A stretch of 43,337 nt of DNA from a virus. The notes below the pieces were generated by a model. It had not been told where the DNA came from, did not search any database, and saw only the letters and a list, made by a program, of their open reading frames with translations. Each line of letters begins with the position of its first letter. Position 1 is the first letter of the stretch. The DNA lies in the IMG/VR virus record IMGVR_UViG_3300045988_011788; one strand, written 5' to 3'. Below are positions 1,815 through 25,504 of this stretch, piece after piece. Made by a program: the position numbers and the translations under genes.

Positions 1815-1949
1815 TTACGCGGGAGTTGAATATTTGATTGTTTTCTTGACCTCTAAAACGATGTACCCGTCGCCTTTTCGGCGTATTTCAGCATCGTTTC
1901 CGCGCTTCAAAATTGCATCGATTGCCTTTTTGACTTCTTCCCAGTTCAA
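1815..1949 (-). CDS. Possible 44-aa small protein (TTG start overlapping the stop of the MuF-like gene)
   Basis: Hand-translated: (M)NWEEVKKAIDAILKRGNDAEIRRKGDGYIVLEVKKTIKYSTPA. AAGGTG lies 5 nt upstream of the TTG, and the terminator follows. Confidence 0.3.
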   Translation of the reverse strand: MNWEEVKKAIDAILKRGNDAEIRRKGDGYIVLEVKKTIKYSTPA

Positions 1950-3115
1950 TACAGCACCTTCATTCTTTCCCGCTGCTCCGGCAGTCCTGCCGCCACGCTG
2001 AACGCTTTGTATTTCGCGTTTAACCGCCGCAGCCTTATGTTTACCGCAGTCTCATCTTCATGCAATCCTGCGGCCTTGTAAGCAGCTTTTTCGCGCTTTA
2101 GTTTGCGTGCCTCGCGCTCAACGCGCCGCTGCATCTGCGTTGCTTCGTATGCAGTGTATTTCTTTCCGTCAAAATCGCATCCGAGATCATCATCAATATG
2201 GGCAAGCTGTTCGTCTGTGTATGTGCGTTCGCTTACGCCCTCAACCCAAACGTTGCGGCGATGCCGACAGTTAGCCCCCTCAAGTCCATCAACAGCCCCA
2301 AGACCGCACACATCGTAAATGCTCGGGTAGATGTCCCCTGCGCGAATACTGTATACCTTGCCTTGCCAGTCCTTATGGCTTGACCACGGTGACGGCCCAG
2401 GCTTATCTCTCGCGCCAGCATGGGCGGAAACCTCAAAATACGGAGTTTCGAGATACTGCGCCGACTGCTCCGTATATTTAGCGCAAATTTGATTTACGCC
2501 AGTCATCACGGCCCTGCGCGCCGCTACATCAATGAAATCACGATGCCCGCTTTCGTAGTCTACAACTCTAATGCCACTATCTGCGAGCTGCCTTACAACG
2601 TTTGCAATAGCCTGATTGTAGCTGATTGCGCCGCTCTGGATCTGCATCTCTGCGTTATCCAAAGCCCACTGATAAGCGCGAGCGGGCTTTAACATCGTGT
2701 TGCCCACAAGGAAACCCATAGAAGCCGTTAAATTGCGGAATGTATCATGGGTCTGCCGCTTAATTGCATCCACTGTAGCCGCATCTACAAGCGTTTCTGG
2801 CTGCGTTACATGCGCAAGGTCGATGACTTCGGTGTAATACTTCTGGTTACGCTCTACAACGTCATTAAGCAAACTATTTAGCTTTTGTTTGCTAATTCCT
2901 GCTGTTTTGCTAATAGATTCTTCGATGCTTTTAAGGTCAATGCCATGCGACCGCAACGCTTGAATATCTTGCACCGTTACCTCGTTCAGCTCATCCGCAG
3001 CTTTCAAACGGGAGCAGATTTCTTCCAGCAGCGTGATTTCAAGCGCACGGAACAGTTCCGCCAGTTCTTCCGGCAGCGCATCAAGTAGTTCCGGGGTAAA
3101 TGGATACCGGCTCAT
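1946..3115 (-). CDS. Minor head protein, SPP1 gp7 / Mu F-like head morphogenesis protein
   Basis: 389 aa directly after the portal gene. Contains the conserved ...GANCRHRR... region typical of the MuF/gp7 domain. Confidence 0.8.
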   Translation of the reverse strand: MSRYPFTPELLDALPEELAELFRALEITLLEEICSRLKAADELNEVTVQDIQALRSHGIDLKSIEESISKTAGISKQKLNSLLNDVVERNQKYYTEVIDLAHVTQPETLVDAATVDAIKRQTHDTFRNLTASMGFLVGNTMLKPARAYQWALDNAEMQIQSGAISYNQAIANVVRQLADSGIRVVDYESGHRDFIDVAARRAVMTGVNQICAKYTEQSAQYLETPYFEVSAHAGARDKPGPSPWSSHKDWQGKVYSIRAGDIYPSIYDVCGLGAVDGLEGANCRHRRNVWVEGVSERTYTDEQLAHIDDDLGCDFDGKKYTAYEATQMQRRVEREARKLKREKAAYKAAGLHEDETAVNIRLRRLNAKYKAFSVAAGLPEQRERMKVLY

Positions 3116-3157: not shown

Positions 3158-4561
3158 TCACTCCACCTCATCTTCTTCCTCGGCTGTCATGTCCTGCATC
3201 TTCGGCAACGCCGCCTTTGCAGTCGCTTCGTCCTCGTTCATCCACTTCATGCGGAACTCCCAATCGTTCATAATGCCTGCCTGCAAGAGCTGCATATCAC
3301 GGGAAAAATCGGTTTGCTTGTCCTCAATGATGCTGTCATCAAAGTCAATGGAGATTTCAACTTCCTCATCAAGTCCTGCGTCCATATAGCGATTGCCCAT
3401 GCGAAGCAAAATGCGACACAGCACCGTAATCGCTTGCTCGAGGATAATTTCATGCTTCCTAATCGTGCGGAACATGGTGCTATTCTCGCTAATGACCTGT
3501 GTGGCCGTGGCAATGCTTGTCTGATCGAATTTGTAATGATTCTCGCCAAAGCCGCATTTGCTCGACAATATGTTGAGCATATCTTGCATACCGGTGTTAA
3601 ACTCTGCTGTGCGCAGCGTCATATCGACCTGTTGCAAAATGTTTCCATCAGATGCGCGATCTTCCGGGAGAACGTAGTAAACCGTTTCGCGCTTATCAAA
3701 GACCGGCCTACCGTTGATGTCCTTGGTTGCTTCCGGCTGTACCACGATGCGCTTTTTCCCCAGCACGAACTCATTCACATAACTATCGTATGTAATATCA
3801 ACGCTTTTGAGCTGGTCGATGGCGGAAGCGAACACTGCAACGCCCATAGGGTTATCTTCATCAGAGTTCGCAATGTTCAGACGGTCAATGACAAACTGCG
3901 GCTTGGCGCTTCCTGTGTGGACAACAGGGGGAATTGCTTCAAATCCTCTCACGCTGGTTAATGGGACTTCCTCCGCATCGTACAGGTGGTTTTCAATGTC
4001 GTATTCGCCACCGTTCAGCCGATGCACCTGAATGTAGATGTATTCCGTATCATCAACTCGTTTTGTCCATGCAAAAGCGCACTCACGAATAATGCCATTG
4101 TCCCACGTCAACGGGTAGATGTTTGCAGCGGTTACATAGTTGATATGAATTCTTCCGGGGTTAGCGATCTCTGCTGTATCAGGGTCAACGCTCATATCCT
4201 CCATGATTGGAACATAAGCAACTGTACCAACAGCGGATTTCCGCTCCTGCAATTCATTGGATTTGACTTCCCAGTTATTATCGGCAAGAATCGCATCTAC
4301 AAATTCCTGCTCCTTCTTGCCCTCAAGCGTGATATTCACGCGCTCGTTCATCAGCAGGTTCGCCCAGTCCTCGCAGACTTTCTTGCCCATGTTGACGGAA
4401 TATCTGTGGCATTCCAGTTCTTCGATGCCATTCCACACCGTATAACTGTGGAAGTCTTTTACATCGCCGTCATACCATGATTTCCATACATCGATCAGGT
4501 CGTAGAATTTGCTATTGATCGTGTCAAAGCCCAATTCTTTAAGTGCTCTGCGAATGTTCAC
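3158..4561 (-). CDS. Portal protein (SPP1 gp6-like)
   Basis: 467 aa with an acidic C-terminus. GTG start overlaps the terL stop (GTGA). Canonical position between terL and the MuF-like gene. Confidence 0.88.
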   Translation of the reverse strand: MNIRRALKELGFDTINSKFYDLIDVWKSWYDGDVKDFHSYTVWNGIEELECHRYSVNMGKKVCEDWANLLMNERVNITLEGKKEQEFVDAILADNNWEVKSNELQERKSAVGTVAYVPIMEDMSVDPDTAEIANPGRIHINYVTAANIYPLTWDNGIIRECAFAWTKRVDDTEYIYIQVHRLNGGEYDIENHLYDAEEVPLTSVRGFEAIPPVVHTGSAKPQFVIDRLNIANSDEDNPMGVAVFASAIDQLKSVDITYDSYVNEFVLGKKRIVVQPEATKDINGRPVFDKRETVYYVLPEDRASDGNILQQVDMTLRTAEFNTGMQDMLNILSSKCGFGENHYKFDQTSIATATQVISENSTMFRTIRKHEIILEQAITVLCRILLRMGNRYMDAGLDEEVEISIDFDDSIIEDKQTDFSRDMQLLQAGIMNDWEFRMKWMNEDEATAKAALPKMQDMTAEEEDEVE

Positions 4562-5844: not shown

Positions 5845-6259
5845 CGCTCTCAAGCTCCTTTGCCATTTCCTTTAAGCTCTGACTGAGTGCGTCTTCCCTC
5901 ACCGTGTCGGCAGGGCTGCCGCCGATCATCGCCCACTTATCAATCAGCGTCCCCATCGCCGTTGTAATCTGGCTGAGATTTGCCGCTGCCAGCTTCTCCG
6001 GGTCGTTGAGCATTTCAAGCCCCTTGCCGATGAACGAACACACAAGGTCTTTGTGGTCGTTCATGTACTCCATCACATCGGCGGTGTTCTCTTCCTTTTT
6101 TTGCTCGCACTTTTCCACAATGTCAGCATTTGCTCGCACAAGATTCTTAACGGTTGTTGCGGACACGCCGTTGATTTTCGCTGTGGCGCAATAGTTGTTC
6201 GTCTGCACATAGTCCGCCAGTATTTTCTTCTTTTGACGGTCTGTCAGCCTTGCAGCCAT
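5837..6259 (-). CDS. terS: Terminase small subunit
   Basis: Start refined to MAARLTDRQKKKILADY behind GGAG. N-terminal HTH-like segment, immediately upstream of and overlapping terL. Confidence 0.72.
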   Translation of the reverse strand: MAARLTDRQKKKILADYVQTNNYCATAKINGVSATTVKNLVRANADIVEKCEQKKEENTADVMEYMNDHKDLVCSFIGKGLEMLNDPEKLAAANLSQITTAMGTLIDKWAMIGGSPADTVREDALSQSLKEMAKELESDD

Positions 6260-6485
6260 TGTCACCACTCCATTTTTTTGTGTCACTTACACCGCAGCAA
6301 TACTCATACCACGGTAACGGCATTACTTCCTGTTGTTCTTCATACAGCGTATCAAACATCTTCATGATGTTTTCCACGGTGTATCCGTACTCAGCCCAAA
6401 GCTGGGTCTTGAATTTTTCAAGCAGGCGCATATTGATTTTTACCTGCTTGTCCATTTCTTCCAGCGTATAAATTTTTCCGATCAC
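6147..6485 (-). CDS. Hypothetical protein; its 3' third overlaps terS out of frame
   Basis: 112-aa ORF (MIGKIYTLEEMDKQVKINMRLLEKFKTQLWAEYGYTVENIMKMF...). The N-terminal ~65 aa look protein-like, but the last ~113 nt overlap terS, so the true extent is uncertain. Confidence 0.35.
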   Translation of the reverse strand: MIGKIYTLEEMDKQVKINMRLLEKFKTQLWAEYGYTVENIMKMFDTLYEEQQEVMPLPWYEYCCGVSDTKKWSGDNGCKADRPSKEENTGGLCADEQLLRHSENQRRVRNNR

Positions 6486-6786
6486 AAGGCATCACCTCGT
6501 TTTGCTACCAGCCCCCACCCCTTGGCCTTACATAGCAGACTTTACCCGCCCCAAAGGGCTACAACGCCGCCCACATTTGGCGTTATTCTTTCCATTGGCC
6601 GTCTTTCTCGCTTAGATTGTCACACGCTACCGACAACTACGCTCCGAAAAGTCGTAGCCCCTATTCCGTCAGGTCAACCCGGTCTTGACGCATCAAGACA
6701 AGCGCAGTTTTCAGCGAGCTTTGTCATTTCCATGTGAGCCATGACGCCAACGGTCTCACATTGTCCGGGCGCTACCCGGCCTCTGT

Positions 6787-6860
6787 CAGGGACGGTTGGG
6801 AATCGAACCCACCCAAGCGGTTTTGGAGACCGCCTCGCCATCCTTGGAACATTCGCCCCT
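6787..6860 (-). tRNA. tRNA-Trp(CCA)-like element with a non-canonical D-arm (possible pseudo-tRNA or tRNA-like module)
   Basis: On the minus strand the acceptor AGGGGCG/CGTCCCT has 7 pairs, the anticodon arm is GCGGT-CTCCAAA-ACCGC, and the T-arm is GGG-TTCGATT-CCC. The D-region TGTTCCAAGGATGGCGAG does not form a 4-bp stem, and there is one extra nt at the T/acceptor junction. Confidence 0.5.
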
Positions 6861-7091
6861 AAATGTCCCCGCTGGGCCACATCGTTGAGAGGTGCGCGGG
6901 GTCCTGTTCCGCATGAGAGGTGCGACCTCTCGGCCCTGATCGTGCGTGCGTGCGGCATATTGCGGGGGCGGTGTGAAAAGATGAAAAGCACCGCGCCCCG
7001 CTATGGCGCAGGAGGTAAACGCCATAAATGAGAGAACCGCAAAGGCTTTTACACCTCTGCGGTTCAATTTTCTCATGATTGCAATACCCTG

Positions 7092-7109
7092 ACTCACTTA
7101 TAAGTGAGT
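7092..7109. promoter_or_regulatory. 18-bp perfect palindrome ACTCACTTATAAGTGAGT just downstream of the XRE gene
   Basis: Read directly. It could be an operator-type site or a hairpin at the 5' edge of the structured block. Confidence 0.4.
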
Positions 7110-7123
7110 TTTGCAAAATATTT

Positions 7124-7342
7124 TTATAAACTTTTTGGATAGTCCGACCTGCCAAGCAGGTAGTCAATCGACACGCCGAAATAATCAGCAATGCTTATCA
7201 GCGCGTCCATTGACGGTTTCTGCGTCCCCATCTCATAGCGCTTGATGGTGTTACGGTTCAGCCCGCACAGCTCAGACAGAACGCAGCGCTTTAATTGCTG
7301 GCGTTCGCGTAACCTCCGCAGCCGATCAGGAAACGTGCTCAT
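7124..7342 (-). CDS. XRE-family HTH transcriptional regulator
   Basis: 72 aa with a classical Cro/C1 HTH (LSELCGLNRNTIKRYEMGTQKPSMDALISIADYFGVSIDYLLG). Confidence 0.85.
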   Translation of the reverse strand: MSTFPDRLRRLRERQQLKRCVLSELCGLNRNTIKRYEMGTQKPSMDALISIADYFGVSIDYLLGRSDYPKSL

Positions 7343-7351
7343 CGCATCACC

Positions 7352-7645
7352 TCAATCATCTCCCGCGCTGTTGATCAGCCTGTCAAGATAGAATCTCGCC
7401 TTTCGCAGATCTTCCTTGCCGTTTTTCAGCGGCCAGCGCCACATGTACTTGAGCACCTGTCCCGTCAGCCATGCTTGCATCGGGTCTTTCTGGCACGTCA
7501 ATGCGGCCGCAATGGCGTCGATGCACTCGACCCCTCCCGCCGTGTAATGCGCGGGGTGACTTACATTGTCATGCTCGATGCACGGGCTATTGGCAGGTGC
7601 GCTCCCTCTCGGCGGTGTACTCCATTTAAACGGATCGTTACTCAT
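7352..7645 (-). CDS. DUF3310-like protein
   Basis: Motifs HYTAGGVECIDAI ... VLKYMWRW...KNGKEDLRKARFYLDRL match the DUF3310 pattern seen in many phages. Confidence 0.7.
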   Translation of the reverse strand: MSNDPFKWSTPPRGSAPANSPCIEHDNVSHPAHYTAGGVECIDAIAAALTCQKDPMQAWLTGQVLKYMWRWPLKNGKEDLRKARFYLDRLINSAGDD

Positions 7646-11596: not shown

Positions 11597-12685
11597 TCAA
11601 TACCTCACTCCGATAAAATCCAGCACTCGACCATAGCCGAGGCCCTTTTCGTTTGGCTTCCACATCCCGTCCGCGGGGTCAAACTCTCCGCCGCCGATGC
11701 AAAAGTCGTAGTGCTTTGGGTGCGTGCGCTTCATGCGCTCGAAGCGGGTCTCTCCCTTTTCAAGATGAGCGCCGAACGCACAGAACATGCACCCCGTGCG
11801 TTGGCAGCCCGTGCAGTGCAGCGGCTTTTCGATGAGCGTCGACGGATAATCATTCTCGCCGTCGCTCGCCACGATGTCGCCGTATACGCTGCAATACGGG
11901 ATGTTTTCGTCTTTCAGGAACGCAAGCACGTCCTGATCTGTCCAGAAGCTCATAGGCTTGCTCATGGGGCGCTTTCCATCGAAGGCGTTGCAGCCCGTGC
12001 GCTTCCACTCTTTTTCGCGCTGCTGGCTCTCGCTCGCCATCATCGCGGTAAACGGCACACATCCGCTCGTAGCTTCGTATCGCTTGGCGGGTGCTTTTTT
12101 CATCACGTCGCAGCACTGCTCGCTAATATGGAACGGCGCATCCTTGAGATAATGCCACTTGTCCGCCAGTTTCATCGTCGAGCAGTACACGCCCTGCCGG
12201 TTGTAGCCGGTCAGATACAGATTGACCGTTGCATCGTTTTGCCCGTGCGCGTTTTGCAGATCGCGGATAAAACGCGCCTGCTTTTTGCCGATGACGGGAT
12301 AGCCGTACCTTGTCAACACCTGCCGGATGTTGAGCTTCGGTCGTAGACGGTGAAGGTTGACGGCCACGCGGGGGAACTCCCTCCGCAGCCAGTCGGCGTA
12401 CTCATTGACGAACTTCTGTATCTCCGGGTACTCCAGCCCAGTGTTCACGAACACCAGATTCAGCTCCCACGGCGGCGCCCTGAAACTCGACAGGTAACGC
12501 GCCGCCAAGTATGCCAGCACCGTGCTATCCTTTCCGCCTGAAAATGACACATAGCACTTTCCGTTCCACGCGGTGTACCATTGATCGATCTTCTCATAGC
12601 TCAATATTTCCTTGTCCTGCAAATCAAGGGCTAAAAGCTGTTTCGCCGCCTCCTTCGGAATCGGCTGATTGCTATACCCTTCCAT
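11597..12685 (-). CDS. PAPS-reductase/PP-loop ATPase family protein (DndC/IbrA-like) with a Cys-rich C-terminus
   Basis: PP-loop SFSGGKDSTV. C-terminal cluster HCTGCQRTGCMFCAFG. Start refined to MEGYSNQ to remove a 190-nt out-of-frame overlap. Confidence 0.82.
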   Translation of the reverse strand: MEGYSNQPIPKEAAKQLLALDLQDKEILSYEKIDQWYTAWNGKCYVSFSGGKDSTVLAYLAARYLSSFRAPPWELNLVFVNTGLEYPEIQKFVNEYADWLRREFPRVAVNLHRLRPKLNIRQVLTRYGYPVIGKKQARFIRDLQNAHGQNDATVNLYLTGYNRQGVYCSTMKLADKWHYLKDAPFHISEQCCDVMKKAPAKRYEATSGCVPFTAMMASESQQREKEWKRTGCNAFDGKRPMSKPMSFWTDQDVLAFLKDENIPYCSVYGDIVASDGENDYPSTLIEKPLHCTGCQRTGCMFCAFGAHLEKGETRFERMKRTHPKHYDFCIGGGEFDPADGMWKPNEKGLGYGRVLDFIGVRY

Positions 12686-13362
12686 GGTGTCCCTCGCATT
12701 CCCTAATGTCTCCTCCCCATTGCTCCGCCATAGCTTTAGCGATGCCGGGGAAGGTCTTTGCGCGGTTTTTGGCCCTATCCGTGGTAAACATACCTTTATG
12801 CTGTTCCCCATGCTTATGACTATAGCTGCCGCTCGGACACCATGTTGCTGTCGGCTCAACAATATTGGTCGGTTTCAACGGCTGTACACCACGCTCCCAC
12901 AGCAAGGTTTTTTTGCTGAACGGGTGTCCGTATTGATAGGGCTGTATGGCTTGGGTTGGTTCTGGATACTCAAACACTTTACTTGGTGTCGGATTTTCAA
13001 TTATAACCTTGTCACAGTCGGCTGCCCATATTGCCAAAAACAACGCTTTGCCGCAAAGCCCTTCATAGTAGCGGCGAAGATTTAACCTGCCGCCTTTATA
13101 CAAATGTCTTGCCCCGGCATTGCTCGTTTTGGTACACGGAGGGAAAGCGATAATCATATCCCATCGCCCCACATCATGCACCTGTCCGTCCATTGTGGTC
13201 ACTTGCCCCCCCCTCTATGGCCTTAAGCGCATCGCCAAGGATATGCCACTCAGGATGCCCGCCGGACGGGTCCTGAATGTCGCAGGAATATGCCTCATGC
13301 CCCAATGCGCGGAACGCCTTACATACTTCCTGCGATTCCTCGCAGGCAACTAAAACCTTCAT
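12672..13362 (-). pseudogene. DNA methyltransferase-like gene (ACEESQ ... FPPCT motifs) split by a frameshift in a G8 tract
   Basis: The N-terminal ORF MKVLVACEESQEVCKAFRALGHEAYSCDI...AIEGG and the C-terminal ORF ...VHDVGRWDMIIAFPPCTKTS... are in different frames. They join at C8 (13206-13213 on the plus strand), and removing one G gives a single continuous reading frame. Confidence 0.6.
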
Positions 13363-19013: not shown

Positions 19014-19540
19014 TCCTCCACCTCCATGTAAACCATCGCGCTCTGCACGCCAAAGACGCGCGCTGCCTGATGGTCGTTGAAAAACACGTCGATGTGGTTC
19101 CCGTTCACGCCGCCGCCGCAGTCCTCAGCGATGTAGCTGCGCTGAGTGCCGTTCGGCCAGATCAGCAGGACGCGCGTGCCGTAAGGGATCACCTCCGGGT
19201 CGACCGCGATTGTGCGTCCCTCGGCCGCCAGCGTGCCGGTCGCGGTGTAGCCGCTTGCCCACTTGCCGCAGCAGCAACGTCCGGGGCAATAGGCCGTGAG
19301 TGTAAACTCGCCAAGAAAAACGTCGTTGCACACCGCGCTTTCAGTCGCGGGAATGTCCCACGCGGGGTCATACTCCTCTACGATGGGTGCTCCTTCCGGT
19401 TCCTCATCGACCGCCTGCGCGCTGGTGGCGAGGATTGAGATCACGATCAAGAGAATCGTCGCGCCCAAACACGCCGCCGCAATCAGCGCCGATTCGTCCG
19501 CCTTGCGCTGCTCTCTCGTGCGCTTGTCGTGCCGTCTCAC
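19010..19540 (-). CDS. Membrane-anchored 3D-domain protein (RlpA/MltA-like double-psi beta-barrel)
   Basis: N-terminal TM (LIAAACLGATILLIVISILA) plus FTLTAYCPG..CCGKWASGYTATG...IAVDPEVIPYGT...AEDCGGGVNGNHIDVF, which carries the three conserved Asp. Confidence 0.78.
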   Translation of the reverse strand: MRRHDKRTREQRKADESALIAAACLGATILLIVISILATSAQAVDEEPEGAPIVEEYDPAWDIPATESAVCNDVFLGEFTLTAYCPGRCCCGKWASGYTATGTLAAEGRTIAVDPEVIPYGTRVLLIWPNGTQRSYIAEDCGGGVNGNHIDVFFNDHQAARVFGVQSAMVYMEVEE

Positions 19541-20355
19541 CGTGTCACCTCTTCCACCGTGATTTGTGCGGGCTTTTCAAACAGTGGAGCAAGCATTTCT
19601 TCTTGCGCCGCCTTGTAAAAATTCCTGTCGATTTCAAAACCGTAAGCATTTCGCCCAAGTTCATACGCCGCGCGAAGGGTGGCCGCGCTTCCCGCGCATG
19701 GGTCAATTACAACGTCGCCGGGGTCGGTAAAAACTTCAATCAGCCTTTTCAGCACATTCACCGGCTTCTGCGTGGGGTGGATCTTGGGAATGTCCTTCCC
19801 GTCGCGCTCCCACTTCTGCCAATCAAAAACCATCTTTCCCGTGCCGCGAATCGGTTTCCCATCTTCGCCGATCTCGCGCCCGTTGTTAAATTTTGGAAGC
19901 TTGTCACGGTAAAGCACTACCGCAAACTCCGTCGCCCCTACTACTCGCATATTGGCTTTAAGCACCTGCGCGGAATAGTTTTTGCAAAAAAACATCGGGT
20001 AGCTGTTTTTGAATCCGTACTGCTTGCCATACTCCATAACGGTCTGCATCTGGTCAAACGCGCAGAAAACAAGCATTGCCGGGGCTTGCCCTTTCTCCTT
20101 CGGTTCTTTCTTCAAAAGCCGGTTACAGAAGTGCATATACTCGGCGATTTTGAAATAGCCGTCGGAGTTGAAAAAGCTGCTCTTTGCTTTTTTACTCTCG
20201 CCGTTTTTGTTGTCACCGCCGATGTACCACGTCGGGTTGCTCCCGTAAGCGTCAGCGCCGATATTGTAGGGAATGTCCGCGATCACAAGCTGCGCCTTTG
20301 GGATTCCGTATTTCTTAAAATTCTGGAAGTTGTCATGGTACAGCTCGCATTTCAT
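19537..20355 (-). CDS. DNA N6-adenine/N4-cytosine methyltransferase (beta class)
   Basis: N-terminal catalytic motif IADIPY (DPPY-type) and C-terminal AdoMet motif VIDPCAGSAAT. Confidence 0.87.
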   Translation of the reverse strand: MKCELYHDNFQNFKKYGIPKAQLVIADIPYNIGADAYGSNPTWYIGGDNKNGESKKAKSSFFNSDGYFKIAEYMHFCNRLLKKEPKEKGQAPAMLVFCAFDQMQTVMEYGKQYGFKNSYPMFFCKNYSAQVLKANMRVVGATEFAVVLYRDKLPKFNNGREIGEDGKPIRGTGKMVFDWQKWERDGKDIPKIHPTQKPVNVLKRLIEVFTDPGDVVIDPCAGSAATLRAAYELGRNAYGFEIDRNFYKAAQEEMLAPLFEKPAQITVEEVTR

Positions 20356-21791: not shown

Positions 21792-21986
21792 TCAGTTCTC
21801 TTCGCTGGGATTTAACAGCTCGTCCACCGTGCATCCGTATAATGCAGCAATCTCCGGAAGTCGACTTGCTCGTGGGGCCTGCTGACCGGTCTCCCAGTAA
21901 TACACGGCCACGTCGGAGATTTTCAGCGCGTCCGCTACCTGCTGGACGCTGAATCCAGCTTTATGACGAGCGCTTCGAAAACTCAT
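21792..21986 (-). CDS. Cro-like XRE HTH regulator
   Basis: 64 aa with an HTH (FSVQQVADALKISDVAVYYWETGQ). Divergent from the CI-like gene. Confidence 0.85.
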   Translation of the reverse strand: MSFRSARHKAGFSVQQVADALKISDVAVYYWETGQQAPRASRLPEIAALYGCTVDELLNPSEEN

Positions 21987-22014
21987 CTTTTCACCTCCAA
22001 ATACTAAGTTTTAC

Positions 22015-22042
22015 TTGACAACTTAGCGAACCGTGATATTAT
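22015..22042 (+). promoter_or_regulatory. Candidate sigma-70-type promoter reading toward the CI-like gene
   Basis: TTGACA-16 nt-TATTAT. Confidence 0.5.
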
Positions 22043-22121
22043 AAGAAGTGCCAACAAACTAATAATTTCGACAGTCCGCTAAGTATCAAGGGGGCTTACT
22101 TTTTTATTGCCCTATGCTTAC

Positions 22122-22150
22122 ATTATACTAAGCTCAGCTTAATATGTCAA
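22122..22150 (-). promoter_or_regulatory. Consensus sigma-70-type promoter reading toward the Cro-like/early operon
   Basis: On the minus strand, TTGACA-17 nt-TATAAT (perfect consensus). Confidence 0.7.
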
Positions 22151-22207
22151 GTTGAACTTTGTATTTTGTGTGACTTCGGCGGTTTGTACAAAGGGAGGCT
22201 TAATATT

Positions 22208-22573
22208 TTGGACGGTCCTACGCTTGTTGATATCGTCGAACGCGAGCTCGTTGCTCGACATATAAAAAAGGCGGAATTTTATGCCGCAACAAAAATATCA
22301 AGTGCAACATTTTCACAGTGGAGAAATAACATCTATTTCCCCTCTGCTGCTAATATCAAAACTATTGAAGAATATTTGGGGATTTCAATTTCTTATTCTG
22401 TAGCCGATAAAGCCGCAAAAAAAGAGCGCCCCACCGATGGTGAAGCGCTCATTTCTGAATTGCCCGAAGATATTCAAAAGCTTATTTGGATTTGCGAGTC
22501 AAATCCTGACCTTGCTGCTGCTCTACTATCTGTTGCGCAGCAGATCGAAAAAGGTCAAGTTGCTGGGGAGTAA
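22208..22573 (+). CDS. CI-like HTH repressor (no S24 peptidase domain)
   Basis: TTG start 8 nt after AGGGAGG. HTH (KKAEFYAATKISSATFSQWRNNIYFPSAANIKTIEEYLGI). AT-richer than the genome backbone. Confidence 0.78.
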   Translation: MDGPTLVDIVERELVARHIKKAEFYAATKISSATFSQWRNNIYFPSAANIKTIEEYLGISISYSVADKAAKKERPTDGEALISELPEDIQKLIWICESNPDLAAALLSVAQQIEKGQVAGE

Positions 22574-22731
22574 ATCTCGAAATTGTAATAATCAATTCCT
22601 CTACCGTCGTCATCCTCTCTGCCCTCCGTTCGCTCTCATATAATAAAACAAGTGTTCTATCGCGGGTTAGTATAACACTAATTTTTAATTGATTCAATGT
22701 AATTTAAAATATAAAATTAGGTGAATTTGAT

Positions 22732-23742
22732 ATGCCCATTACCGTATATTTTGAACACGGCCGCGTTGTGGAGCTGTTTCCAGAACCAAATCAATCGTAT
22801 TACGACGTGCGCGATAAGATCAACGCGGCGACTGATATAGTGTCTGATGGAATAAAATACGATTTGACCGATAAGCAATCGATTTATTCTATCGCTATTC
22901 CTGACTATACAAAAGTACGCAATGTCCCCACTTCAAAAGAGTTAGGCCCAACAGGATATCTTGAATATGTGTTGAGAATGCACGCTGGTTTTCTATGGAA
23001 TACCGGAGATTACCAGCTATCAATGGCTTGCCTTGAAAAATCTTGCCAGTTGATGACATATTCCACACTTGGGTGGGAGCGAAAAGACTTTTATAGGGTT
23101 GTCAATTCTTATATTGAGCTTGGTCGATTTAAAAAAGCAAAAGAGTGGAAAGCCTGGATAGATGCCCACACGGAATCTCCGGAAGACTATGCAAAAGACG
23201 CATTTGCAAGAACGCTTGAATCGTGTAAAAGACTTAAAACTGATTTAGTAGAGGTTGGCGATTCAAGCGCGTGCTGTGGAATTTGCGCGAAGTACCGGAG
23301 ACGGATATATAGCTTATCTGGAAAAAGTTGGAAGTTCCCAAAGTTTCCAGATGATTTCCATTTTCAATGTGCTCTTGGGATATTTGCCTATATTGATGGT
23401 GTTTCCGAGCCGTCTTTCAAATCCATTAGTCCATCTCTGTATAGCAAACGACCGTTTCGCGATGATCGAACAGAAGAAGAAAAGGAAAATTATAGACTTT
23501 GGTTAGAACGTGTTGAAAAGTCTTACAATCCGATCAATGAGCCGAATCTAAATCATATTATTTATTATTGGTTCAAGCCTAAATTCCCCGACGACTTCCC
23601 AAAATCTCTTTCTGGTTTTTCTCGCATGCGAAACGGGAACACAGCAAATTATCAAAAGCTGGCACAGAAGATTGAGGATGCGGGGTATACCATACCTAAA
23701 TCATTAGATGAGGTCGCAGAACGTGAAGAGCGGGAGAATTGA
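22732..23742 (+). CDS. Orphan 336-aa protein in an AT-rich island of the immunity region
   Basis: Clean ORF with an SD (aggtga) and its own terminator. Contains CCGICAKYRRRIYSLSG...HFQC and a duplicated KFPDDF motif. No family recognised. Confidence 0.75.
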   Translation: MPITVYFEHGRVVELFPEPNQSYYDVRDKINAATDIVSDGIKYDLTDKQSIYSIAIPDYTKVRNVPTSKELGPTGYLEYVLRMHAGFLWNTGDYQLSMACLEKSCQLMTYSTLGWERKDFYRVVNSYIELGRFKKAKEWKAWIDAHTESPEDYAKDAFARTLESCKRLKTDLVEVGDSSACCGICAKYRRRIYSLSGKSWKFPKFPDDFHFQCALGIFAYIDGVSEPSFKSISPSLYSKRPFRDDRTEEEKENYRLWLERVEKSYNPINEPNLNHIIYYWFKPKFPDDFPKSLSGFSRMRNGNTANYQKLAQKIEDAGYTIPKSLDEVAEREEREN

Positions 23743-23770
23743 AAAGTTGCAAGGCGGTATAGCTTAGATT

Positions 23771-23810
23771 GGCCCCGCCGCCCTCTGCAACAAACGGCGG
23801 GGCCTTTTCG
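23771..23810 (+). terminator. Rho-independent terminator
   Basis: GGCCCCGCCG-14 nt-CGGCGGGGCC followed by TTTTCG. Confidence 0.8.
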
Positions 23811-23973
23811 CAGCCAGCGGGAAGCGGTCGCCGCTGCATGTTTTGACCATACTCCGCTTTACCTTACCACTTCAATACCAAGACCTTGCAACACGACGGC
23901 ATTCGACCGCGTTCGACAGACCCACTTTTGGCACCCAAAACGGGCAGAAACCGGAAAAGTTAAGGTGATGTAA

Positions 23974-24387
23974 ATGAACATTCAAGAGCTGTGTAGAATC
24001 CGTAAAGAAGAACTGAAACTGACTTACCACGACATTTCCGACGCTTCCGGCGTGCCGCTGTCCACCGTGCAGAACTTCTTTTCCAAAATGTCGAAAGCCC
24101 CGTCCATTTACACCGTCGCGCCGATCTGCAAGGTGCTCGGTATATCCCTTGACGAAATATTCGGGATTTCCGAACACTTGACACCAACCGAGGAAACCTT
24201 ACAGGCGCGCAACGATGAGCTGGAACGCCACGTGGACGCAAAAGCAGACACGATCGAGATCATGCGGCGCGGAGTTCGTATCCGAAACGGCGTGATTGCT
24301 ATAATGTTCCTCATTATCGTTTTTCTCGCTGTGTGGTGCGTGTACATTGATTTTCATTGTATAGATTACGGATTTTGGAGGGGCTGA
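23974..24387 (+). CDS. Membrane-anchored XRE-HTH protein (C-terminal TM helix)
   Basis: N-terminal HTH (LTYHDISDASGVPLSTVQNFFSK...), a coiled segment, then the TM helix VIAIMFLIIVFLAVWCVYI. Only 1 nt separates it from the integrase ATG. Confidence 0.8.
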   Translation: MNIQELCRIRKEELKLTYHDISDASGVPLSTVQNFFSKMSKAPSIYTVAPICKVLGISLDEIFGISEHLTPTEETLQARNDELERHVDAKADTIEIMRRGVRIRNGVIAIMFLIIVFLAVWCVYIDFHCIDYGFWRG

Positions 24388-24388
24388 C

Positions 24389-25504
24389 ATGGCAAATTGC
24401 ATCAAATGTAAAGCAGCGCTGCCGGATGGCGCGCTGTTTTGTCCTATGTGCGGCAAAAAGCAGGTCGCCGAAAAGCGCAAAGCGCTCAAGCGCGCCAACG
24501 GAACCGGCACGGTGTATAAGCTCTCAGGCCGCCGTGCGCGCCCGTGGGTCGCCGCGAAAAACAGGGTGGTCATTGGATACTACGAGCGCAAAACAGACGC
24601 ACTGGACGCATTGGAACGGCTGAACGGCAAGCCCCTGACGGAGCGATACAATATGACCTTTGCCGAGGTGTTTGAGGCGTGGAAGGCCGAGCACTACAAA
24701 GAGATCGGCAAGCAGGGCATCCAATCGTATGACGGCGCGTACAAGGTATTTGCCCCGCTGCACGACCGTAAATTCCGTGATCTGCGCGCCGCTGACTTCC
24801 AAGCCGCGATTGACCCGTACATGAGCAAAAGCCATTCCACCGTCAGCAAATATAAGCAGCTTATTACCCAAATGTCGAACTGGGCTGTGCGGGAGGAAAT
24901 CTGCACGGCAAATTTTGCAAGGTTTGTCCGCCTGCCGGAAAATATAAAAAAAGAAAAGGATATCTTCACCGAGGAAGATATCCAGAAACTCGAAAAGGAC
25001 GGCAGCGACGCGGCGAAGATCGTCCTGATGCTGTTGTCAACCGGTATGCGCATCGGCGAGTTATTTAACCTTCCTATCGCTGATTATCACAAGACTTATG
25101 TGGTCGGCGGAGAAAAGACAGACGCAGGCCGCAACCGTATCATTCCCATCCGCCCGGAAGGTCGGCAATATTTTGAGCATTTCGCTGCGCGCGCAACAGG
25201 CGAGCTGCTGATCTCTGGTTACAGCGGCCAGAAGGTTATTGAGAATTTCCGCAAGCGCGATTTTTACCCGCTGCTCGACCGTCTCGATATAGCCAAAAAG
25301 ACGCCGCACGCCACGCGCCATACTTACACGTCCCGCGCCGTCAAGGAAGGGCTGGCCCCAGAAATGCTGCAAAAAATACTCGGTCACGCCGATTATTCCA
25401 CCACGGCAAACATCTATACACATATTGACGCCGAAACATTGGTGTCCGCCGTTACTGACGCGTTACTAACAAGCCAAGAAAATGGCAAAAAGAAAAAGCC
25501 CTGA
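24389..25504 (+). CDS. int: Tyrosine site-specific integrase with an N-terminal zinc ribbon
   Basis: C-terminal catalytic region HATRHTYTSRAV...LGHADYSTTANIYTHI. The N-terminus is CIKCKAALPDGALFCPMCG. Confidence 0.92.
   Translation: MANCIKCKAALPDGALFCPMCGKKQVAEKRKALKRANGTGTVYKLSGRRARPWVAAKNRVVIGYYERKTDALDALERLNGKPLTERYNMTFAEVFEAWKAEHYKEIGKQGIQSYDGAYKVFAPLHDRKFRDLRAADFQAAIDPYMSKSHSTVSKYKQLITQMSNWAVREEICTANFARFVRLPENIKKEKDIFTEEDIQKLEKDGSDAAKIVLMLLSTGMRIGELFNLPIADYHKTYVVGGEKTDAGRNRIIPIRPEGRQYFEHFAARATGELLISGYSGQKVIENFRKRDFYPLLDRLDIAKKTPHATRHTYTSRAVKEGLAPEMLQKILGHADYSTTANIYTHIDAETLVSAVTDALLTSQENGKKKKP

Follow-up and report, generated by a model that had tools for sequence, protein, structure and literature searches.

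Superinfection exclusion genes such as the lactococcal Sie2009-type genes and Ltp of Streptococcus phage TP-J34 are located between integrase and repressor, and prophage-mediated defence genes adjoin the immunity cassettes of mycobacteriophages. A separate class of phage proteins, variously known as MuF, gp7 or gp44, has to our knowledge so far been regarded only as head-packaged injected proteins or as toxin carriers; in phage 80alpha, gp44 leaves the capsid together with the DNA. Here we describe a 336-aa gene, given the working name X, at positions 22732-23742 (plus strand) of a viral DNA stretch of 43,337 nucleotides (IMG/VR record IMGVR_UViG_3300045988_011788; the whole stretch is referred to as the window). 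Its product, as judged from profile and sequence comparisons, is a remodelled member of the MuF superfamily, and its gene lies in the lysogeny module between the cro/repressor switch and the integrase.

In the survey of siphovirus genomes by Jamet et al. (PMC5576092), more than half encoded a MuF/gp7/gp44 protein. SPP1 gp7, a portal-binding protein present in one or two copies per head, aids the initiation of infection (PMC6316719, PMC5576092), and 80alpha gp44 is incorporated via the portal crown (PMC12889711). When supplied in trans, gp44 works in the cytoplasm of the recipient cell, and its C-terminal domain (CTD, residues 272-331) binds blunt DNA ends, protects them and probably promotes circularisation (PMC7290940). 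The proteins are covered by two Pfam families, PF06152 (Phage_min_cap2, here MuF2) and PF04233 (Phage_Mu_F, here MuF1).

When the X family was aligned with five canonical MuF2 proteins using hhalign, residues 106-315 of X matched residues 133-341 of 348 (99.5 %, E = 7e-23). By BLASTP, residues 148-314 matched the minor head protein of Staphylococcus phage TPWB-09 (XQU46466; E = 1e-16), and in PHROGs residues 163-320 matched phrog_4611, 'minor head protein' (3e-8). A tblastn search of phage genomes found the C-terminal half of X in minor head proteins encoded directly after the portal gene (Staphylococcus and Terrisporobacter phages), and a Foldseek search of BFVD with the X model returned predicted 'minor capsid proteins'. 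X itself gives no reportable match to Pfam PF06152; 13 of 50 relatives match it at E<=0.01, and a solo 180-aa form of the C-terminal module reaches 47.5 bits, above the gathering score of 26.3. The TPWB-09 protein matches both PF06152 and PF04233, and 80alpha gp44 matches PF04233. Together, the hhalign and BLASTP matches and this Pfam bridge place the C-terminal two-thirds of X in the MuF superfamily of Jamet et al. (PMC5576092). An earlier note on this DNA, made from its letters alone, had seen a faint resemblance to MuF-type segments, which proved to be true homology.

The homology does not extend over a whole MuF protein. Matches cover only positions ~204-341 of the 366 in the PF06152 profile, and residues 1-105 of X have no counterpart. 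The direct BLASTP comparison of X with 80alpha gp44 was not significant, the link running through TPWB-09 and Pfam. By Pfam coordinates and the TPWB-09 bridge, the Cys/His ribbon of X corresponds to the start of the gp44 CTD, with only ~35 residues that can be mapped. A sequence search of PDB with X gave chance matches only (e.g. Wnt-3a and TCR beta, E>=0.04).

The AlphaFold2 model of X, built on a 50-sequence alignment, was very confident (predicted local distance difference test score 94.3; predicted template modelling score 0.85). Behind a family-specific N-domain (Table 1), helices occupy residues 66-168, with the last of them (from ~106) alignable to the helical part of canonical MuF2, and residues 172-335 form a small three-stranded element followed by helices. 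A helical-repeat-like middle had been noticed before; the modelled helices, a match to Pfam TPR_8 below the cut-off (E = 5e-4; 20.4 bits, cut-off 25.7) and weak tetratricopeptide repeat (TPR) matches in Foldseek bear it out. In the Foldseek comparison with PDB these were the only matches (best E = 0.14; Rap phi3T at rank 49, E = 2.8), and no solved structure resembling the C-domain was found (nothing with E<0.1). The idea of an ADP-ribosyltransferase (ART) fold for MuF was considered and rejected, as Foldseek against PDB gave no ART match and the C-domain contains three short strands only. A review from the Aravind laboratory describes MuF as a head-targeting domain that is fused to ARTs and is not itself an ART.

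The Cys motif pointed out in the earlier note is real and corresponds to the MuF ribbon (C182-x2-C185...H210-x2-C213, nt 23275-23370). Its conservation is partial: C182, C185, H210 and C213 are kept in 41, 41, 26 and 42 of the 50 relatives, respectively, and the zinc ligands are lost in about 20 % of X relatives. Relative P0109 has a canonical 'HSGCRCS' at the ribbon (P-numbers denote relatives of X and L-numbers related loci). In addition to the C-x2-C...H-x2-C ribbon, X and MuF2 have in common a DLxEV strand, the motifs YS-x-G-x-D-x-RFP and DDRT, and the tail APKS-x-S-x-Y-x-RMK-x-NS-x-x-YQ. Residues Y188, R191, R240, D244, R246 and P290 are invariant in the X family; the last belongs to the conserved tail motif P290-K-S-x-S-x-F-x-R-M-R-N. 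This MuF2 tail closes X, 14 residues before the stop.

The KFPDDF motif had been described as duplicated. At the protein level the repeat is exact, with PKFPDDF at aa 203-209 and 285-291. The two DNA copies differ at 6 of 21 positions, all of them third codon positions, and a recent duplication is therefore dismissed. Across the family, only F202/P203/P206 and P286/P290/K291 recur around these segments.

X is preceded by its own Shine-Dalgarno (SD) sequence, AGGTG at 22719-22723, 8 nt upstream of the ATG, in agreement with the earlier reading. A word-seeded search found 107 homologues of 30-95 % identity, mostly unnamed gut-metagenome proteins. When 1.84 billion cluster representatives were searched exhaustively with a profile, the family comprised 368 clusters (at 50 % identity) at E<1e-30, 978 at <1e-10 and 1934 at <1e-3. 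The 90 % cluster of X holds 380 member sequences, one member being present on 103 contigs of up to 207 kb, and dN/dS against the orthologue in phage MT835513 is 0.078. Named relatives carry 'hypothetical protein' or '(phage) minor capsid protein', the organisms named being Oscillospiraceae; a single-protein scan of genomes gave one locus only, in Lachnospiraceae bacterium 54-53. These data indicate that X is a real, constrained and common gene, and that its family is large, uncharacterised and resident in prophages of gut bacteria. The label of an orphan with no assignable family does not hold for a protein with 368 clusters at E<1e-30, auto-labelled 'minor capsid protein' in public databases.

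The phage keeps a canonical PF06152 gene (1946-3115) in the portal-adjacent slot, with X located elsewhere, between the repressor and integrase units; therefore X is not the head gene. Pairwise comparison of X with this resident MuF2 gave no significant similarity. A recent duplication of the resident gene was rejected for this reason, and X is therefore taken as an old, separate lineage.

The AT-richness of the region, judged by eye in the earlier note, was borne out by computation over segments of equal size. GC content is 0.401 for positions 21990-23770, against a mean of 0.538 (sd 0.029, minimum 0.468) for other 1781-nt segments (z = -4.8). The 500-nt segments from 22001 to 23500 range between 0.388 and 0.412, and those elsewhere between ~0.47 and 0.64. 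GC at third codon positions is low in both island genes (X, 0.38; helix-turn-helix (HTH) gene, 0.36) compared with 0.53-0.74 in ten other genes. The island being compositionally foreign is thus supported. It had been thought to hold a single plus-strand gene; it holds two, as the repressor-like HTH gene is AT-rich like X.

Within the window, the placement of X in the lysogeny module, between the cro/repressor switch and the integrase unit and with a terminator of its own, was upheld. The strong terminator reported after X was recovered (stem of 10 bp, all G/C, and a loop of 14 nt; Table 1); it was overlooked by a consensus terminator scan because the loop limit of that scan was 8 nt. The same scan found no plus-strand terminator between the repressor-like gene and X, and the search for structured RNA in the spacer gave nothing significant (z = +1.0). 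The private promoter that had been proposed for X (TTGATT-17-TAAAAT, 22689-22717) could not be retained. It matches the consensus at 9/12 positions only, and the region contains 8 promoter-like sites compared with 4.6±2.3 in shuffles; therefore the site is not above chance. In relatives, moreover, the upstream gene overlaps X by 4 to 37 nt or ends up to 46 nt away, or X comes first.

Table 1 Coordinates of the features in the window (strand and basis as given by the analysis)
Feature	Position	Strand	Basis or remark
Gene X, 336 aa, remodelled MuF2-type minor-capsid/ejection-protein paralogue (assigned by homology)	22732..23742	+	ATG start
X residues 1-62, family-specific beta-rich N-domain, four strands	22732..22917	+	model secondary structure
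X residues 63-168, TPR-like helical stack	22918..23235	+	Pfam, model, Foldseek, hhalign
X residues 169-322, MuF2 core and tail	23236..23697	+	alignment, BLASTP, hhalign
AT-rich island	21990..23770	.	GC 0.40 vs 0.54 in rest of window
Cro-like 64-aa HTH gene	21792..21986	-	HTH_31 4e-11, HTH_3 3e-10; first gene of divergent early operon
Promoter-like TTGACA-16-TATTAT (11/12, with TG)	22015..22042	+	candidate repressor/X operon promoter, putative function
Perfect sigma-70 consensus TTGACA-17-TATAAT	22122..22150	-	faces cro-like gene
Repressor-like HTH gene	22166..22573	+	HTH_26 4e-4, HTH_3 4e-3 (both below cut-off); phrog_8, phrog_4 regulators
158-nt spacer	22574..22731	+	holds weak promoter-like site 22689-22717 and SD AGGTG 22719-22723
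Intrinsic terminator closing repressor/X unit	23771..23808	+	-26.9 kcal/mol, z = -3.3 vs shuffles, then UUUU
Second HTH gene, 137 aa, hydrophobic C-terminus	23974-24387		after X terminator
Integrase	24389-25504		start abutted by stop of second HTH gene
Canonical minor capsid protein 2 (MuF2)	1946..3115	-	PF06152 2.9e-83, full length; directly downstream of portal gene
Portal, SPP1-type (PF05133)	3158-4561		Pfam

In eight prophage contexts, relatives of X occupy the first or second place in the repressor operon, and this recurrence strengthens the argument from the lysogeny slot. In the window and in L005, L012, L013 and L024, a cro-like gene (-) is followed by the repressor and then X (+). In L020 and L022 the order is cro-like gene, X and then repressor, the proteins downstream of X (162 aa and 151 aa) being of XRE-type HTH by inspection. 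The integrase is found downstream of X wherever the flank reaches that far. The relatives overlap their upstream gene by up to 37 nt or are separated from it by up to 46 nt, which would imply co-transcription with that gene. The partner repressors are of unrelated types, either short HTH proteins or self-cleaving HTH+S24 proteins. A dedicated two-gene cassette of X with the upstream HTH gene was rejected, as the neighbouring repressors are unrelated in type and the order flips.

X also occurs at other sites. In L002-L004 (8001-9771), X and a RelB/YoeB toxin-antitoxin pair form a reverse-oriented insert between the tape-measure and tail-assembly (Gp15) genes; GC dips to 0.39 there, and the carrier phage has its own MuF2 and portal. 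Both phages with a visible head module carry an SPP1-type portal and MuF2. In L007-L011, X follows holin/endolysin genes near the prophage end. These loci were at one point read as resembling integrative and conjugative elements (CHAP, Bro-N; RepA_N/TraG/Rep_trans fragments in L010). Since PHROGs gave tail-fibre-like, holin-like and CHAP endolysin matches, they were reassigned to the post-lysis end of prophages, and the argument that X occurs without capsids was withdrawn. A short form is present in a satellite-like element (L026) with an integrase, an Arc-like gene, Bro-N and a primase-helicase.

In 12 of 12 other loci, X lies 5-18 GC points below its surroundings, and usually below the adjacent repressor gene too. 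The downstream neighbours differ in every context, with no conserved downstream partner; a lipoprotein gene adjoins X in L012. X thus has the immunity-operon position, the co-orientation with the repressor, the terminator and the atypical composition of a lysogeny-module moron. Slot and composition are hallmarks of such a mobile accessory gene, and the gene order suggests that X would be expressed from the prophage.

The family is modular. The N-module (X residues ~1-150) is paired with an unrelated C-terminal half in WAK79202 (343 aa) of Blautia phage Montmirail, which shows 35 % identity to X over residues 4-136 (E = 8e-19). The N-domain, the first helices and the integrase-side slot of WAK79202 are as in X, the gene being directly upstream of the integrase (L001 3456-5020). 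No Pfam family matches its C-terminal ~200 residues, which have no relationship to the MuF module; therefore the N-module is a cassette that joins different C-terminal halves. The gene before WAK79202 in L001 encodes a protein with bPH_3 and SHOCT domains.

Short forms of ~237 aa (P0111 and P0112; 868 and 775 members) carry the N-module without the ribbon and keep the last tail motif, APKS-x-S-x-YSRMKN. A solo C-module of 180-190 aa is encoded after a CI-S24 repressor in MT835475. At one prophage locus (L007/L008 3225-4907 vs L009-L011 ~6001-7455), near-identical X proteins have an N-extension which is either a multi-pass membrane anchor (P0059, 560 aa) or an FtsK-gamma winged helix (P0056, 484 aa). 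Further variants have membrane anchors (P0025, P0319) or FtsK-gamma (P0292). Among metagenomic proteins, P0295 (1135 aa) joins an X module (residues 29-384) to two AAA+ domains with AAA_lid_6 and may be either a true fusion or an artefact of assembly or gene calling. P0177 (197 aa, a single sequence) combines the start of the X N-domain (~65 residues) with the C-terminal portion of Pfam Imm49 (E = 1.5e-11).

When compared with canonical MuF proteins, X is alike in its homology over ~106-315 and in its occurrence in temperate Firmicutes siphophages with SPP1-type portals. It differs in that the N-terminal ~100-190 residues of canonical MuF are replaced by the beta domain and helices, and are absent in the solo forms. 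In addition, the canonical gene follows the portal, whereas X is in the immunity operon or at other moron sites and is strongly AT-shifted; the phage with X keeps a separate canonical copy, and the ribbon ligands are not always kept in X relatives.

The MuF polymorphic toxins (Jamet et al. 2017, PMC5576092) resemble X as a MuF module with another domain, abundant in gut Firmicutes prophages. The extra domain of these toxins follows a complete MuF on its C-terminal side, the gene comes after the portal and a small immunity gene is downstream. X, in contrast, has an N-terminal addition to a truncated MuF and ends where short MuF2 proteins end; no toxin family was found on it by Pfam, and the next downstream feature is the terminator. 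A classic MuF toxin was seen in L015 (2560-4074; Terrisporobacter phage TVCOM_ph1), where the portal-adjacent 'minor head protein' consists of PF06152 and a BURPS668_1122-type deaminase (E = 1e-21).

The exclusion and defence morons of Gram-positive temperate phages are similar to X in slot, orientation with the repressor, own terminator, composition and patchy distribution, and some X relatives are membrane-anchored as well. They have no sequence relationship to X, the X of the window has no signal peptide or transmembrane segment, and its virion-protein ancestry sets it apart. Full-text literature searches on MuF, PF06152, anti-phage defence and phage Montmirail gave no account of genes derived from MuF that sit in an immunity operon. 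Neither the ancestry nor the slot is unusual in itself; their combination, with an ejection protein exapted as a widespread gene expressed in lysogens, seems not to have been reported before.

We propose, with a probability of roughly 0.4, that X is a lysogen-expressed, non-enzymatic interference factor derived from an ejection protein that binds DNA ends or the portal. Position and domain ancestry suggest a putative defence role, and interference with other phages would be the most plausible role of the family. X would be a horizontally mobile moron of temperate siphophages in gut Clostridia (Oscillospiraceae/Lachnospiraceae), transcribed with the immunity repressor and hence made in the lysogen. 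It may have arisen as an exapted MuF-superfamily virion protein in which the ancestral N-terminal ~100 residues were replaced by the beta domain and TPR-like helices. Acting stoichiometrically and non-enzymatically, its MuF ribbon/tail module would engage the partners of the ejection proteins of superinfecting headful phages, that is, the ends of incoming linear DNA and/or, during assembly, the portal vertex. As the ancestral N-terminal part is lacking, X could work as a dominant-negative or decoy; circularisation of the genome would be blocked, or defective progeny would result. Membrane-anchor or FtsK-gamma variants would put the MuF module at the DNA entry site or on the DNA.

It is possible, although rather doubtful, that X founds a new and widespread class of single-gene prophage exclusion factors. 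In such a class, a truncated and re-headed MuF made by the lysogen would act by capping blunt ends on incoming headful-packaged genomes or by poisoning the portal crown of assembling virions, in either case dominant-negatively against the ejection protein of the invader, and N-terminal swaps (membrane anchor, FtsK-gamma, AAA+) would retarget it.

Several points weigh against a role of X in interference. PADLOC-DB v2 gave zero families at E<=1. No NCBIfam model matches X, and no recognisable effector or enzymatic domain was found in it (Foldseek against PDB, weak TPR matches only, E>0.1). The transfer of DNA-end binding from gp44 to X is weak, as it runs through a ~35-residue ribbon and an intermediate, and the C-domain is mildly basic only (ribbon +2, tail +3; pI 7.8). 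SPP1 and 80alpha can dispense with their MuF proteins or need them only in part, so that the protection given by a decoy might be no more than modest. A protein of MuF type in the cytoplasm could just as well assist incoming DNA, like gp44 supplied in trans. Expression of X in the lysogen is suggested by gene order only.

It is unlikely that X is a component of the lysis-lysogeny or immunity circuit, that is, a TPR protein which modulates the activity or stability of the repressor or senses a signal, cf. Rap and AimR. Adjacency to the repressor is conserved though the order flips, and a TPR-like module in X and a fused DNA-binding winged HTH (FtsK_gamma) in some relatives would fit such a role. 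80alpha gp44 itself was first suspected of acting on the CI switch, but binding to CI was disproved (PMC7290940). As the partner repressors are of unrelated types, a dedicated cofactor is unlikely; X is also found away from any repressor, with RelB/YoeB in the tail module and after lysis genes. Unlike the RRNPP proteins (Rap, AimR), X has no HTH, and its TPR matches are below every threshold. No signalling-peptide gene was noticed beside X, though no search was aimed at one.

That X is auxiliary virion cargo is quite improbable. In this case the MuF module would load X through the portal into the phage's own capsids, and the injected N-domain would act early in the next host, e.g. by favouring establishment or countering host defences. 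The tail motif at the C-terminus, common to canonical MuF2, is part of the homology to ejection proteins, the MuF domain is a known vehicle of head-packaged effectors (PMC5576092, PMC5512222, PMC9503650), every context examined is phage or satellite-like, and the portal and MuF2 of the two phages with a visible head module would suit such loading. X is, however, encoded together with the repressor, in its operon and on its strand, and not among the late genes, and at the tail-module and post-lysis sites it is reverse-oriented or separately transcribed. Moreover, the known MuF effectors are C-terminal fusions to a full MuF beside the portal, but X is without the MuF N-terminal part and is dissimilar to the resident MuF2, and multi-pass membrane-anchored variants could hardly be packaged.

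We give only a small probability to X as a DNA-end protector for the resident element or the host, which like Mu Gam or T4 gp2 would cap ends against AddAB/RecBCD-type nucleases, or to a host benefit unrelated to phages. The gp44 CTD shields blunt ends from exonuclease and works in trans (PMC7290940), the mild basicity of the X ribbon and tail is compatible with end binding, and FtsK-gamma fusions are known in the family. An integrated prophage, however, has no free ends, the shielding of incoming foreign DNA would bring the lysogen no obvious benefit, and the mapping of X to the gp44 CTD is short and indirect. A decaying head-gene duplicate or a spurious open reading frame (ORF), to which the 'minor capsid protein' labels of public pipelines and the ready occurrence of long ORFs in AT-rich DNA could point, is effectively refuted by the dN/dS, the hundreds of diverged full-length clusters with common invariant residues, the confident model, the 380-member cluster with its 103-contig member and the distance from the resident MuF2.

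The switch region upstream of X was also analyzed. The promoters at 22015-22042 (+) and 22150-22122 (-) stand face-to-face, and their transcripts would overlap. A 27-nt inverted repeat and ACTAAG/CTTAGT-type repeats span both (21999-22166), and the latter could be operators. The Cro-like gene, which diverges from the HTH/X unit, has homologues at the cro position of L020 and L022, and the whole region looks like a genetic switch. The repressor-like ORF opens at TTG 22166, and an alternative TTG at 22208, located 9 nt after GGGAGG and giving 121 aa, is the likelier start. Inside this AT-rich gene lies a GC-rich 12-bp hairpin with a T-run (22424-22450, minus strand), which is terminator-like and coincides with position 22415, where similarity to MT835513 resumes. 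The hairpin could mark a boundary of recombination or terminate antisense transcripts.

The window represents a ~43-kb siphophage genome in which the minus strand carries the majority of genes, including terminase, SPP1-type portal, canonical minor capsid protein 2, capsid, tail and DNA methylase genes; a short plus-strand block is located at 22.1-25.5 kb. Among public phages, MT835513 (from human faeces) is the closest; it has 22415-24352 in common at 90.5 % identity and differs in the integrase and in the N-terminal, DNA-reading half of the HTH gene. This pattern appears to be typical immunity-region mosaicism with X conserved.

Downstream of X, the 137-aa HTH protein has a hydrophobic, transmembrane-like C-terminus containing VIAIMFLIIVFLAVWCVYI, and a single nucleotide separates its gene from the start codon of the integrase. 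The integrase N-terminus is a zinc-ribbon motif (Zn_Ribbon_1/DZR matches), and L022 has a homologous HTH-then-integrase pair (28 % identity, E = 1.6e-15). A PAPS-reductase/PP-loop-like protein of 420 aa and an N6/N4 DNA methyltransferase are encoded at 11597-12862 and 19537-20355 (minus strand), and both may have roles in DNA modification or anti-restriction. A tRNA-Trp (CCA) gene is found at 6787-6860 (minus strand), upstream of the packaging genes.

The X family can be seen as a second life of the MuF module, which would have been taken off the head operon, given a new N-domain and wired into the immunity operon, and which is common in prophages of gut Clostridia. Its constant AT shift is a trait usual in mobile accessory genes. 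If X interferes with superinfecting phages, it would add a defence principle, an ejection-protein decoy, that is missed by current defence catalogues. It would also offer an experimental handle on the poorly understood step from DNA injection to circularisation, and correct a systematic 'minor capsid protein' misannotation that inflates structural-gene counts in gut viromes. If X is instead a regulator or cargo, it would still be a conserved, unstudied component of the lysogeny module in gut bacteria that are hard to culture.

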